32,000 nt of DNA from Candidatus Nanohalobium constans (GCF_009617975.1 NZ_CP040089.1:570001-602000), one strand, 5' to 3'; positions 1,528-32,000 are shown, counted from the first letter of the stretch. A program made the numbers and translations. The notes: a model not told the origin generated them from the sequence alone.

Positions 1528-1643
1528 GTCAGGCAACGTCCTGATTGTCCCGCCGAAAGGCAGTACCGATCAGATCGATGGAAGACTTTACTACCGTGTT
1601 CGGAATGGGTACGGGTGTTGCCCTTCCTCTTTGGTCGCCTGTA
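1528..1643 (-). rRNA. 5S ribosomal RNA (stand-alone; ends approximate to a few nt)
   Basis: The reverse complement reads AGGCGACCAAAGAGGAAGGGCAACACCCGTACCCATTCCGAACACGGTAGTAAAGTCTTCC...GGTACTGCCTTTCGGCGGGACAATCAGGACGTTGCCT. The CCCGUACCCAUYCCGAACACGG core matches haloarchaeal 5S as I remember it. Helix I pairs AGGCGAC (1634-1640) with GTTGCCT (1531-1537), and a GAAA/UUUC-capped helix is present. Confidence 0.88.
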
Positions 1644-13293: not shown

Positions 13294-13840
13294 AACTTCT
13301 ATGTGGTCGAGAGAACTCCTAACTAAAACAAGTGTAGAAAACTCTTGTTCTCAGAAACTTTTTTAAATGCCAGATCACAATGTTGGTATATGACTCACAT
13401 GAGCCACCTTCGCGGATTTGCAGTGGACTCTGTGAGTTGCAAGTATATCTTCTCGACTAATATCTCCAATCTGTTTACCGTGTATATGTGATACATGGTG
13501 AGTAGGTTGGGCTTCCTTGCCTGGTTCTCAACTCAGGGAACAGGAAAGAAAGGAACCCGATCGAAAAAACTCGGACATATTTTGCCTCCAGGTCGAAGCT
13601 ACGCAGATTGGAAAACCAGCTACCAAACAAACAACGACACCTCAACAAAAACAAAGAATACCAAACAACGAAAAAGTCGAGAAGATTCGCTTCCAACACC
13701 CAGAACTCCACCAAAAAACAAAAACAGCTGCCGAAAAACCAGTTCACAACCCAAAAACACGAGGTCAGATAAACCAGAAAGAACCTTCGCATAGAGCCTA
13801 AGCCGAATAGGTTTTATTTCGATTTCCCTTTTTATCCTTC

Positions 13841-25337: not shown

Positions 25338-25357
25338 TGTTCGGAAAAAACCGAACA
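25338..25357 (-). terminator. Hairpin with a U6 loop downstream of tRNA-Tyr
   Basis: TGTTCGG-AAAAAA-CCGAACA, a perfect 7-bp stem. An A-run (T-run in tRNA sense) also lies at 25405-25413, directly after the tRNA. Confidence 0.3.
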
Positions 25358-25420
25358 CCTAATGGGATTCAAGACAAATCATAGAAATACATAGTGACCA
25401 CAGGAAAAATTTTGGTAAAG

Positions 25421-25494
25421 TCCCGACTCCAGGATTTGAACCTGGGACAATCCGCTCTACAGGCGGACGCTCTGCCAGACTGAGCTAAGTCGGG
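25421..25494 (-). tRNA. tRNA-Tyr (anticodon GUA)
   Basis: The reverse complement folds as a cloverleaf: CCCGACT/AGTCGGG acceptor, GCTC/GAGC D stem, TCCGC-CTGTAGA-GCGGA anticodon arm, 5-nt variable loop, CCAGG-TTCAAAT-CCTGG T arm. C1-G72 pair (archaeal/eukaryal Tyr identity). No encoded CCA. Confidence 0.93.
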
Positions 25495-25534
25495 TTTGTT
25501 GTCTTAGCTTCATTCAAGAAGCACTTGGCTTCGC

Positions 25535-25550
25535 ACTGAGCTAAGTTGGG
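25535..25550 (-). repeat. Partial copy of the tRNA-Tyr 5' end (16 nt, 1 mismatch)
   Basis: ACTGAGCTAAGTTGGG versus ACTGAGCTAAGTCGGG at 25479-25494. Confidence 0.85.
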
Positions 25551-25599
25551 TGCGTATATGCCCGAGTTAGACTCATTGAGAAAACCGCCAGGTTTTCGT

Positions 25600-25614
25600 C
25601 TGAGCTTAGTCGGG
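25600..25614 (-). repeat. Partial copy of the tRNA-Tyr 5' end (15 nt, 1 mismatch)
   Basis: CTGAGCTTAGTCGGG versus CTGAGCTAAGTCGGG at 25480-25494. Confidence 0.85.
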
Positions 25615-25657
25615 TGTTGTAAGAATTGGTTTACTGGTTAAAGTTTTTAAGGTGTGT

Positions 25658-27016
25658 TCAGGTATTGAATTCTGCGGAGGTGGTGTTGCTTTCTGCTATT
25701 TTCTTTCCTTCCGTGTCTCTGATGGTGGCAGGTTGGAAGTCTACTTCTTCCTCTACCTGTACTTTTGGTCTTATCTTGTATTGTATGATTCTCTGGTCTC
25801 CTGGCTCTAGGTCTTCTACTTGCCAGGTTAGTTTGGTTCCTTCGTTTGTTTTCCTGATTTTTGGCGTGTTCATGGAGAAGCTTTCGTCTACCGTTGCTAT
25901 GTCTGGGATGAATTCTTCTAGTTCAAGTTGTTCTATTGTTTTTTCGCCGTTGTTCTCTATTTCTAGGTTTATTTTGATGCTGTTTCCGTCGGTTTCTGCG
26001 GTTTTGATCAGTGATATGTTGTTTCCGAGGAGTTTGATCGCTGCCAGCATCAGTATCAGCAGTGTTATGGCTGCTACCGGGATCCAGTAGTTTACTTGGT
26101 ATGTTGCTGAGAACTGTTCGTCTGGTTGAAGTGTTTTTTGCCAGGTGTAAACGGTTTTTCCGTCTATTTCCTGTGTTTGGTTAGGTTTTATGCTTGTTGA
26201 TGTGATTGATTGTAGGTATGCTGGTGTTTCAGCGGTTAATGTTACGTTTGTAGGTGAGTTGCCTGTGTTTTTTGCCTTCACTGTTTTTTCAAATACTAGG
26301 ATTTTGTTATTGGTTTGTTGTGTTTCTGAAATGTTCTTTACTGTTTCTATCGTGGTTTTTTGTGCTGCTGTGGTCTGTAGTTTGTTGTCTGCTGTTACGG
26401 TGTATTCTATCTGGTTTGTTCCGGGCGTGGCGTTTTTGTCTGTTCTGAAGCTGAATTCGTATCTTCTTGTTCCTCCTGGAAGTATTCTTGTGCCTGTTTC
26501 TGTCTTTGTTTTGTTTTTGTAGGCTGCTTTGACTTGGTAGTTTTCTATTGGTTGGCTGTCTAGGTTTTTGACTTCTATTTCTGTGTTTATTATTTCTCCG
26601 GGGATGAAGCTTGTTTTTTCTTGTTTTAGGTCTATTATGTGTAGTTTGTAGGGTTGTTGGACGTTGAAGATGCCTGTGAATTGTTTAGTTTTGCCGGTTT
26701 TCTGTTCTCTTATTTTTCCGTCAAAGCGGTATCGTTGTTGTAGCGCGTCTTCTACTGGCGAAGCTGTTATCTGGAATGTTTTGTTTGAGTATCCTGGTGC
26801 TTTGATGGTTTTGGGATAGTAGAGCCAGGATGATTTTGGTGATAGAATGGATACGGAGTAGGTCTGGTTGTCAGGGTTTTGGTTTTGTAGGGTTACGTTG
26901 AACACTGCGGGGGAGGACTGGTTTGCCGATGATTTTACCGGTGTTATTGAGGTCTCCAGTGCAGATACTGTGAATACGAGTAAGATTATTGCAGCCGGTA
27001 AAACTAGTTTCTTCAT
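25658..27016 (-). CDS. Surface protein with CARDB/DUF11-like domains and an internal TM segment
   Basis: Signal peptide MKKLVLPAAIILLVFTVSA. T/K/N/Q-rich beta-type domains with many N-x-S/T sequons. TM WIPVAAITLLILMLAAIKLL. Acidic C-terminal domain INLEIENNGEKTIEQLELEEFIPD...WQVEDLEPGDQRIIQYKI. Confidence 0.75.
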   Translation of the reverse strand: MKKLVLPAAIILLVFTVSALETSITPVKSSANQSSPAVFNVTLQNQNPDNQTYSVSILSPKSSWLYYPKTIKAPGYSNKTFQITASPVEDALQQRYRFDGKIREQKTGKTKQFTGIFNVQQPYKLHIIDLKQEKTSFIPGEIINTEIEVKNLDSQPIENYQVKAAYKNKTKTETGTRILPGGTRRYEFSFRTDKNATPGTNQIEYTVTADNKLQTTAAQKTTIETVKNISETQQTNNKILVFEKTVKAKNTGNSPTNVTLTAETPAYLQSITSTSIKPNQTQEIDGKTVYTWQKTLQPDEQFSATYQVNYWIPVAAITLLILMLAAIKLLGNNISLIKTAETDGNSIKINLEIENNGEKTIEQLELEEFIPDIATVDESFSMNTPKIRKTNEGTKLTWQVEDLEPGDQRIIQYKIRPKVQVEEEVDFQPATIRDTEGKKIAESNTTSAEFNT

Positions 27017-31584: not shown

Positions 31585-31717
31585 GGAACATTTCCCCTCT
31601 TTTTATCTTGTTAATTAATTTGGTCTGCAAATACCCCGGAGAAAATACCTTCGCTAAAGACGAATTGTTCCGTTACCGGTGCAAAAAAATTTATCACATT
31701 TTGTAAGAAAAATTATT

Positions 31718-31790
31718 TGGCAGGACCCGGATTTGAACCGGGGTCTGGCCGTCCCAAACGGCCAATGATAGTCCACTACACCATCCCGCC
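31718..31790 (-). tRNA. tRNA-Pro (anticodon UGG)
   Basis: The reverse complement is GGCGGGATGGTGTAGTGGACTATCATTGGCCGTTTGGGACGGCCAGACCCCGGTTCAAATCCGGGTCCTGCCA. Acceptor GGCGGGA/TCCTGCC (one G-U), anticodon arm GGCCG-TTTGGGA-CGGCC, T arm CCCGG-TTCAAAT-CCGGG. No encoded CCA. Confidence 0.92.
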
Positions 31791-31818
31791 AAACTTCTGA
31801 AAGTTTGATCATCAAGGT

Positions 31819-31896
31819 GCATGGTTCGGCGAACCATGCTTTGCGTGCGTTGAAGACCATTTGGTCTTCTGCTCTAGAAAACCTTTCGGTTTTCGT
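31819..31896 (-). other. Three consecutive perfect hairpins in the tRNA-Pro upstream spacer
   Basis: GCATGGTTC-GGC-GAACCATGC (31819-31839), GAAGACC-ATTT-GGTCTTC (31852-31869), GAAAACC-TTTC-GGTTTTC (31877-31894). Confidence 0.7.
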
Positions 31897-31926
31897 AGGA
31901 TCTGAGCGTAACCAGTCCGTTCAGTC

Positions 31927-31939
31927 ACACCATCCCGCC
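31927..31939 (-). repeat. Exact 13-nt copy of the tRNA-Pro 5' end
   Basis: ACACCATCCCGCC is identical to 31778-31790. Confidence 0.85.
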
Positions 31940-32000
31940 TTCCTGTATTATCTGGTTTGGTACACTAGTTTTAAAATAGGATTTCCGTCTTCGCGTAGGG

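Follow-up and report, generated by a model that had tools for sequence, protein, structure and literature searches.

Structured stretches carrying copies of the tRNA 5′ end as putative leaders of tRNA-Tyr and tRNA-Pro in Candidatus Nanohalobium constans

The 5′ leaders that RNase P removes from transfer RNA (tRNA) precursors are usually short and unstructured, and we know of none that includes a copy of the 5′ end of its tRNA. The locus described here raises the question of what such copies are doing in front of tRNA-Tyr(GUA) in Candidatus Nanohalobium constans, a nanohaloarchaeon of the DPANN group whose genome measures 973 kb. The window, which is a 32,000-nucleotide (nt) stretch of that genome (NZ_CP040089.1:570001-602000) numbered from its first letter, carries this single-copy gene on the minus strand, with its first 15–17 nt repeated twice more upstream. 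We consider it probable, if well short of certain, that positions 25495–25620 form a co-transcribed structured 5′ leader of tRNA-Tyr, with RNase P most likely removing it. Judged from the sequence comparisons below, the reading of the present-day region as a structured 5′ leader appears well supported. Listed in tRNA sense, the features of the locus are as follows.

25638–25650, minus strand: TATA-like box of tRNA-Tyr, TTAAAAACTTTAA, with its core TTAAAAA at 25644–25650, 30–36 nt upstream of the distal copy
25600–25615, minus strand: distal copy A of tRNA-Tyr nt −1 to 15, ACCCGACTAAGCTCAG, with U8→A
25580–25597, minus strand: hairpin H1, GAAAACC-TGGC-GGTTTTC, with flanks ACGAAAACC..GGTTTTCT matching H1 of the tRNA-Pro leader
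25561–25574, minus strand: anti-copy A, an inverted partial copy, GAGTCTAACTCGGG, which pairs with copy A
25535–25551, minus strand: proximal copy B of tRNA-Tyr nt −1 to 16, ACCCAACTTAGCTCAGT, with G4→A; orthologues on the related contigs L229, L230 and L232
25518–25532, minus strand: hairpin H2, GAAGC-CAAGT-GCTTC, its stem invariant in four genomes and its loop variable
25503–25509, minus strand: anti-copy B, AGCTAAG, which pairs with copy B nt 6–12 and is also complementary to the true tRNA 5′ strand
25421–25494, minus strand: complete tRNA-Tyr(GUA), 67.8 bits, 74 nt, uninterrupted, CCA not encoded
25403–25410, minus strand: T-run ATTTTTCC, the putative transcription stop of tRNA-Tyr, 11–18 nt past the tRNA

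A repeat finder placed the 17-nt segment from −1 to nt 16 of tRNA-Tyr at 25479–95, 25535–51 and 25599–615, and the A at position −1 is present in all three repeats, giving a repeat length of 16–17 nt. The two extra copies thus lie where a preliminary description of this DNA had reported them. A terminal 13-mer with at most one mismatch to tRNA nt 1–13 arose in 2 of 20,000 shuffles of the 200-nt region upstream of tRNA-Tyr and in 1 of 20,000 for tRNA-Pro, and a chance origin of the terminal copies, at about 1e-4 per gene, is not plausible. The leader consists of two units of ~57 and ~64 nt, each made of a direct copy, a GAA..TTC hairpin and an inverted partial copy, with the intact tRNA next. 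Both inner hairpins and both inverted partial copies were located where they had been claimed, and each unit folded alone gave a nested stem-loop in which copy and anti-copy pair around the inner hairpin (z = −2.6 and −3.7). Unit A additionally retains an acceptor-like 5-bp stem, CCCGA/TCGGG. The tRNA covariance model gave no match to the units at E ≤ 10 and no sub-threshold tRNA-like match, and a 13-mer scan of tRNAs against their flanks matched terminal segments only; we rejected a tandem tRNA duplicate or pseudogene on these grounds.

Could the distal copy be the real 5′ exon, with the sequence through nt 15/16 of the proximal copy serving as a D-loop intron that the splicing endonuclease cuts out? 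In its favor, the acceptor 3′ strand is paired with the distal copy in the minimum-energy fold, the tRNA-Thr of L229 contains a true intron made of related module sequence, and the AGCT in the repeat is self-complementary. However, an uninterrupted mature tRNA already lies downstream, and by inspection the outer helices of a bulge-helix-bulge (BHB) cannot form at the junctions, where only the AGCT palindrome could pair. Additionally, the copies are mutated at conserved tRNA positions (U8A in copy A, G4A in copy B, A14G in L229 and L230) and are therefore not used as tRNA sequence, and the distal copy is decayed or gone in L232 and L230. We rejected a BHB intron and hold the D-loop reading to be extremely improbable. 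The preliminary description had offered a long structured leader removed either by RNase P or by the splicing endonuclease; the leader best describes the present state, and the endonuclease is unlikely given the missing BHB and the mutated copies.

Syntenic contigs L227–L232 were reached through homologues of the gene adjoining tRNA-Tyr, and the tRNA-Tyr comparison covers six loci, that is the window and five other genomes.

N. constans (window): two tRNA-Tyr units, A and B
L232: two units, the distal copy decayed, the inner parts not collinear with unit A of the window
L229: one unit, the equivalent of unit B of the window
L230: one unit, the equivalent of unit B of the window
L228: no unit, the same promoter directly fused to the tRNA
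L231: no unit, the same promoter directly fused to the tRNA

Such a comparison of syntenic loci had been proposed for the spacer, and it found a unit in N. constans, L229, L230 and L232 and its precise absence in L228 and L231. On the tree of the neighboring gene these four carriers of unit B fall into both major clades, and the unit would therefore be ancestral and precisely lost twice, as expected from recombination between direct repeats. The contigs L227 (end 2217) and L228 (end 3836) stop at the tRNA-Tyr promoter or the tRNA end, which is consistent with assemblies broken by repeats. Perfect 9–11 bp palindromes of the ATCCTGTAT/ATACAGGAT type occur 1–2 kb downstream of tRNA-Tyr in L229 (12660–12684) and L230 (13689–13711), and L230 has a different perfect palindrome at 13625–13647, also 1–2 kb downstream.

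The stand-alone 5S ribosomal RNA (rRNA) gene of the window served as the reference for promoter spacing.

1528–1642, minus strand: 5S rRNA, with a TTTATAA box at 1666–1672, which is −30 to −24, essentially leaderless

In the copy-less set (this 5S rRNA gene, tRNA-Tyr of L228 and L231, tRNA-Thr of L229, tRNA-Asn of the contigs L064 and L265, and tRNA-Arg of L265) a motif scan placed the TATA box within −37 to −24 relative to the mature 5′ end, and these genes are therefore nearly leaderless, which is the usual state of stable-RNA genes in this clade, their TATA box lying about 25–35 nt before the mature end. The orthologues in L228 and L231 have the same box as the window, at −31 to −25 and −35 to −29 of mature tRNA-Tyr. 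In the copy-bearing genes the box was found relative to the distal copy at −36 to −30 (N. constans tRNA-Tyr), −37 to −30 (N. constans tRNA-Pro), −34 to −28 (L229 tRNA-Tyr), −32 to −26 (L232 tRNA-Tyr) and −33 to −25 (L230 tRNA-Pro); tRNA-Tyr of L230, whose distal unit is decayed, is unlike most of them in having its box at −52 to −46. The distal copy occupies the usual start position of a tRNA, and therefore all sequence downstream of it would be leader. This agrees with the earlier proposal of a promoter followed by tRNA nt 1–15, a structured spacer and the complete tRNA, which gains support from the TATA spacing of the copy-less genes and from the relatives. The TATA-like box upstream of the distal copy is present as claimed and is the sole TATA-type box, although it ends at 25650 and not at 25652; the stop codon of the upstream gene is at 25658. 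We rejected the idea that the copy is required as initially transcribed sequence, since L230 has lost the tRNA-like start beside its promoter and that of L232 is decayed.

Archaeal promoters can be degenerate, and the spacer might lie outside the tRNA transcript altogether, if an unrecognized promoter directly preceded the complete tRNA and the copies were silent DNA. A weak ATATA at 25555–25559 and a TATTTT at the equivalent place in L232 are candidates for such a promoter. These weak boxes lie 61–65 nt from the tRNA, however, and are absent in L229 and L230, and the ATATA neither matches the box of the clade nor is conserved. The motif scan found no TATA-like box from the distal copy to the tRNA in any copy-bearing gene, as had been noted for the window's tRNA-Tyr, and −40 to −20 of the mature tRNA is boxless in every copy-bearing gene and holds a box in every copy-less one. 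Conservation at the level described next would also be unexpected for silent DNA. We therefore consider a cryptic promoter very unlikely.

N. constans and L230 were compared for sequence identity. It amounts to 53% for the adjacent protein, to 36% at the four-fold sites of its gene and to 31–55% in the 3′ flanks of the tRNAs, shuffled sequence giving 39%. The values are 86% for Tyr unit B, 90% for the tRNA-Pro leader module and 96–99% for the tRNAs themselves. Because the leaders keep 86–90% identity where the four-fold sites and the 3′ flanks are saturated, we take them to be old and constrained and not decaying scars. Within unit B the copy, the H2 stem and a CTTCTT are invariant and the H2 loop varies. 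The copies of L230 and L232 keep T16 while their tRNA-Tyr has G16, and gene conversion as the force maintaining the copies was rejected because these copies fail to follow the change from T16 to G. An att (attachment site) relic or a miniature insertion, the two other explanations put forward in the preliminary description, do not suit the present state of leaders this conserved and are possible as origins only.

The layout recurs at the second tRNA, as had been observed before, and is found in relatives as well. The repeat finder recovered the first 13 nt of tRNA-Pro at 31778–90 and again at 31927–39, with the following features between promoter and gene.

31969–31978, minus strand: TATA-like box of tRNA-Pro, TATTTTAAAA, about 30–37 nt before the copy
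31927–31939, minus strand: copy of tRNA-Pro nt 1–13, GGCGGGATGGTGT, 149 nt upstream; its decayed L230 orthologue is GGCGAGATGGTGT
31791–31926, minus strand: tRNA-Pro leader module, 136 nt with five hairpins, the module compared with L230 above
31898–31918, minus strand: TGGTTACGCTCAG motif of the module
31877–31894, minus strand: H1 of the module
31852–31869, minus strand: H2 of the module, GAAGACC/GGTCTTC, with an ACGCAAA linker after it
31819–31839, minus strand: H3 of the module, GCATGGTTC/GAACCATGC
31803–31815, minus strand: TTGATGATCAAAC box of the module
31790–31807, minus strand: stem AAACTT/AAGTTT of the module, abutting G1
31718–31790, minus strand: complete tRNA-Pro(UGG), 52.6 bits in a local Rfam scan

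The sequence ACGAAAACC-N4-GGTTTTCT is common to the tRNA-Tyr and tRNA-Pro leaders, where chance would give 0.06 matches. L230 has a tRNA-Pro leader collinear with that of the window, and L229 retains only an H1-like hairpin and a decayed copy. A provisional hairpin "H0", a 3–4 bp stem around TGGTTACGCTCAG, was dropped as unsupported, its 3′ arm pairing elsewhere in the intron context. The tRNA-Pro gene was missed by a whole-window Rfam scan at the gathering threshold, and ARAGORN places each of its ends 1 base too far (31717–31791).

Related modules were found outside leaders. A scan of the genome collection for H1 returned about 100 chance matches and a single related one, L064, which belongs to a nanohaloarchaeal metagenome-assembled genome. 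There, an H1-H2 block 92% identical over 66 nt to the N. constans tRNA-Pro leader lies downstream of an intron-containing tRNA-Arg, and this trailer block is followed by a duplicate of the last 17 nt of tRNA-Arg; the ArgRS proteins of the two organisms are only 57% identical. The tRNA-Phe of L064 has a long hairpin leader with TTCAGAAGTTT at its end and a trailer composed of TGGTTACGCT, H3, a second copy of the leader module and then a duplicate of its last 16–22 nt. In L229, the canonical 37/38 intron of tRNA-Thr starts with GGACTGGTTACGCTC..ACACGCAAA and an H3-like hairpin, which is the start of the tRNA-Pro leader module, and this pre-tRNA folds with a relaxed BHB. Alignment of the module instances reveals a mosaic in which conserved single-stranded motifs are separated by hairpin blocks that may or may not be present. 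The two paralogous modules of L064 differ by compensatory changes in hairpin 1 (GCATCTC/GAGATGC vs GCAACC/GGTTGC) and in hairpin 2 (AAGACTC/GAGTCTT vs GAAGAAC/GTTCTTC). Perfect hairpins with stems of 7 bp or more cluster in the leader and module regions, 5 of the ~15 in the window falling within 0.8% of its length and 10 of the 13 in L064 within module regions.

In the 13-mer scan, upstream matches begin at nt 1, downstream ones end at the last nt, and the strand is always the same; the 13 tRNAs yielded eight terminal duplications and, as an exception, one odd internal match. The contig L265 shares synteny with L064 and comes from the same genome as L229; its tRNA-Arg, tRNA-Phe and tRNA-Asn are free of introns, modules and duplications, apart from an 8-nt mini-copy in the tRNA-Phe leader. 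We regard the hairpin modules as an intron-related, dynamic and patchily distributed family found in whichever part of a nanohaloarchaeal pre-tRNA is later removed, be it leader, trailer or intron.

Several smaller observations concern the same contigs. The sole duplicate of an internal segment is at L064 802–815, a 13/14-nt copy of tRNA-Arg nt 25–38 (the 5′ exon end) that lies 58–71 nt upstream. A leader-type motif, TGATGATC..ACTTTCAGAAGT, is present in inverted orientation at L064 1163–1186, directly after the 3′-terminal duplicate of tRNA-Arg. The tRNA-Arg(TCT) and tRNA-Asn(GTT) genes of L064 (873–1005 and 6850–7044) have hairpin-rich introns of 46 and 122 nt, the Asn intron resembling the L229 tRNA-Thr intron in its 3′ part, and the syntenic genes of L265 (2818–2892 and 9175–9247) are intronless. 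The tRNA-Phe leader of L265 (6805–6840, minus strand) begins with GGCCGTTA, a near-copy of tRNA nt 1–9 at the predicted transcription start, and CCGTTAT occurs again right before the tRNA.

One way to account for this distribution is that the modules are present or recent small mobile elements related to introns, which insert into tRNA genes, leave a duplication of the terminus and are discarded by processing as selfish passengers; their conservation would then reflect the needs of mobility. This reading concerns origin and is partly compatible with a structured leader. It is favored by the near-identical block in a tRNA-Pro leader and a tRNA-Arg trailer despite the distance between the ArgRS proteins, by module pieces inside a canonical intron, by patchiness at orthologous tRNAs (L064 vs L265; 0, 1 or 2 Tyr units), by the fact that all eight duplications end exactly at the tRNA terminus and by the identity of H1 with its flanks at two N. 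constans loci. Additionally, unit A of N. constans and that of L232 are not collinear, which suggests that units have formed repeatedly. However, terminal inverted repeats are absent, the duplication varies in length from 13 to 22 nt, and the neighborhood holds no gene for a transposase, integrase or reverse transcriptase. The orthologous insertions are also old, their decayed flanks differing between genomes around a conserved module, and the H1 scans gave the one related genome match and no related match in metagenomes among the matches listed. We thus treat present or recent mobility as possible and clearly less probable than a leader constrained at the RNA level. With the same reserve, the modules may represent a previously unrecognized mobile intron-related family in Nanohaloarchaeota that colonizes leader, trailer and intron with duplication of the tRNA terminus. 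As origin we would favor a single insertion step, by recombination or template switching, in which the tRNA terminus was duplicated anew.

Alternatively, the copies could be dead att duplications left by a virus or plasmid that integrated in the 5′ part of the tRNA gene and has since been mostly deleted, making the spacer functionless. The topology, a direct repeat of a tRNA terminus beside a reconstituted gene, is that of known archaeal integrations of the SSV and pNOB8 types, and the insertion is precisely absent in some relatives. In Caldiarchaeum a 5′ fragment of tRNA-Thr lies 1.8 kb upstream of the full gene (PMC3293823), and partial tRNA fragments are reported in Aeropyrum (PMC3218864). 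Unlike these att duplications, the N. constans inserts are geneless hairpin spacers of merely 40–136 nt, co-oriented and apparently co-transcribed, and they carry an inverted partial copy. One spacer sequence serves three different tRNAs, both termini and part of an intron, and the deep conservation across lineages with saturated neutral sites indicates that they are not decaying. A search for open reading frames between the repeats (56–149 nt apart) found none, no integrase or other element gene was found beside them, four pattern scans of IMG/VR gave chance matches or none, and BLAST against PLSDB and INPHARED returned nothing, so that no homology to mobile elements was found. An att relic is on this evidence a rather improbable explanation.

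RNAs are known to ride on tRNA transcripts, examples being RNAs with flanking t-elements and the box C/D small RNAs (sRNAs) encoded in tRNA introns, and the leader might be kept as the source of one or more stable small RNAs with a function of their own, freed from the tRNA transcript by RNase P cleavage. Strong conservation that includes the single-stranded motifs, the compensatory changes in both hairpins of the paralogous leader modules of L064 and the seeming irrelevance of position in leader, trailer or intron speak for this, the last being what a passenger RNA would be expected to show. Against it, neither leader matches an Rfam family even at E ≤ 10, and modules are missing at the same tRNAs in related genomes. 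There is no C/D or H/ACA box arrangement: the TGATGA...CTGA of the tRNA-Pro leader was rejected as box C/D because the boxes are out of register and not conserved, and H/ACA because the stems are simple, of 5–9 bp and without a pocket. Complementarity of the conserved loops to 5S rRNA, the 23S 3′ end and tRNAs is at chance level, with duplexes of only 8–9 nt, and guiding of or pairing with rRNA or tRNA was dropped as a role for the loops. We consider a small RNA unlikely, if less so than an att relic. We also judged it less likely that the DNA palindromes are protein-binding sites, since the stems change by complementary substitutions and the loops vary.

How might a precursor that contains decoys of its own 5′ strand be processed? 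We propose that two units came to separate the original promoter and first 16 nt from the rest of the tRNA-Tyr gene, and that transcription would begin a few nt before the distal copy and end at the T-run, yielding a pre-tRNA of ~215 nt. In the emerging RNA, each decoy copy would be captured in a closed stem-loop by its own anti-copy, so that it would not rival the true 5′ strand as partner of the acceptor 3′ strand, and an RNase P cut at 25494/25495 would follow. The tRNA-Pro gene would have the same layout with one copy and the 136-nt module. Copy and anti-copy would neutralize each other, so that loss of one alone would be harmful, and the whole unit could be cleanly lost by recombination between direct repeats; both long conservation and precise absences would follow from this. 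In the folding models, the leader alone forms self-contained copy:anti-copy hairpins, and the predicted probability of the true acceptor stem goes up when the copy is shuffled and down when the anti-copy is shuffled. The anti-copies thus probably keep the decoy copies from invading the acceptor stem. All five protein subunits of RNase P have been reported in Nanohaloarchaeota (PMC4919917).

Several points weigh against this account. In the global minimum of the full precursor, the distal copy pairs with the acceptor 3′ strand and an anti-copy with the true 5′ strand, and the correct cloverleaf lies only 0.8–6 kcal/mol above it; because misfolding is predicted at equilibrium, the model needs kinetic, co-transcriptional folding. 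L228 and L231 lack any unit and three orthologous tRNAs of L265 lack modules, so any positive function must be dispensable. Mutual neutralization does not explain the conserved sequence of the H2 stem or the single-stranded motifs CTTCTTGA and TGATGATCAAAC, and the unit-B alignment has no two-sided covariation. Moreover, we infer the transcription start, the co-transcription and the RNase P cut at tRNA-Tyr, and the sample is small at 16 tRNA genes from ten loci in eight genomes.

The genes next to the repeats, HxlR, DUF63 and one for a Top6B-C-like protein, are conserved and chromosomal. A hairpin, TGTTCGG-AAAAAA-CCGAACA, lies at 25338–25357 between tRNA-Tyr and the next gene. Four proteins encoded in the window match N. 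constans exactly, and the genome paper of this organism lists 39 tRNA genes and unlinked rRNA genes (PMC7443923).

The preliminary description knew of no earlier account of the layout, and our literature search found none of tRNA leaders in which the 5′ end of the tRNA is copied, nor any work on the structure of nanohaloarchaeal pre-tRNAs. As in an ordinary RNase P leader the sequence would be removable, and as in the alternative 1:2 and 2:3 pairings of attenuators an anti-copy can pair with either identical flank. Fujishima et al. reportedly described intron transposition in Thermoproteales in 2010, and transposed or mobile archaeal tRNA introns have been reviewed (PMC4090602, PMC4033280). 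Like such introns, the modules comprise related sequences across tRNAs and positions, vary in presence between close lineages and in part constitute the canonical intron of L229 tRNA-Thr. Unlike them, the modules in the window are not part of the mature tRNA, have terminal duplications in place of a BHB at their borders, and are presumably removed by RNase P and not by the splicing endonuclease. Permuted and split tRNA genes of C. merolae, Thermofilum pendens and Nanoarchaeum, for whose origin tandem-duplication intermediates have been proposed (PMC3218864, PMC3978253), also have a partial tRNA segment between the promoter and the remainder of the gene in one transcript. In N. constans, by contrast, the tRNA is complete and colinear and the fragments are redundant and mutated. 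The t-elements of Haloferax are tRNA-like processing signals (PMC4326828) and resemble our units in being short, derived from tRNA and structured, and in occurring within RNA precursors of halophilic archaea, the acceptor-like stem of unit A included, but the N. constans units have no T-arm and no covariance-model similarity and precede a tRNA rather than another RNA.

Terminal repeats of this kind probably interrupt metagenome assemblies at tRNA genes, and the annotation of tRNAs or att sites may be misled by them. A pre-tRNA would here contain decoys of the 5′ strand of its tRNA, and the anti-copies built into the leader apparently solve the folding problem that these create. Models for introns at odd positions and for split or permuted archaeal tRNA genes invoke mobile elements and terminal duplications, with few observable intermediates. 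The present case offers such intermediates in a culturable organism with only 39 tRNA genes, the modules appearing across N. constans and its relatives as leader, trailer and intron, each with an exact terminal duplication, and orthologous loci having 0, 1 or 2 units. If the modules are indeed a mobile family, the arrangement of tRNA nt 1–13, module and full tRNA would be a living intermediate from which non-canonical introns could arise once the inner copy is lost, and which could also lead to permuted or split tRNA genes.

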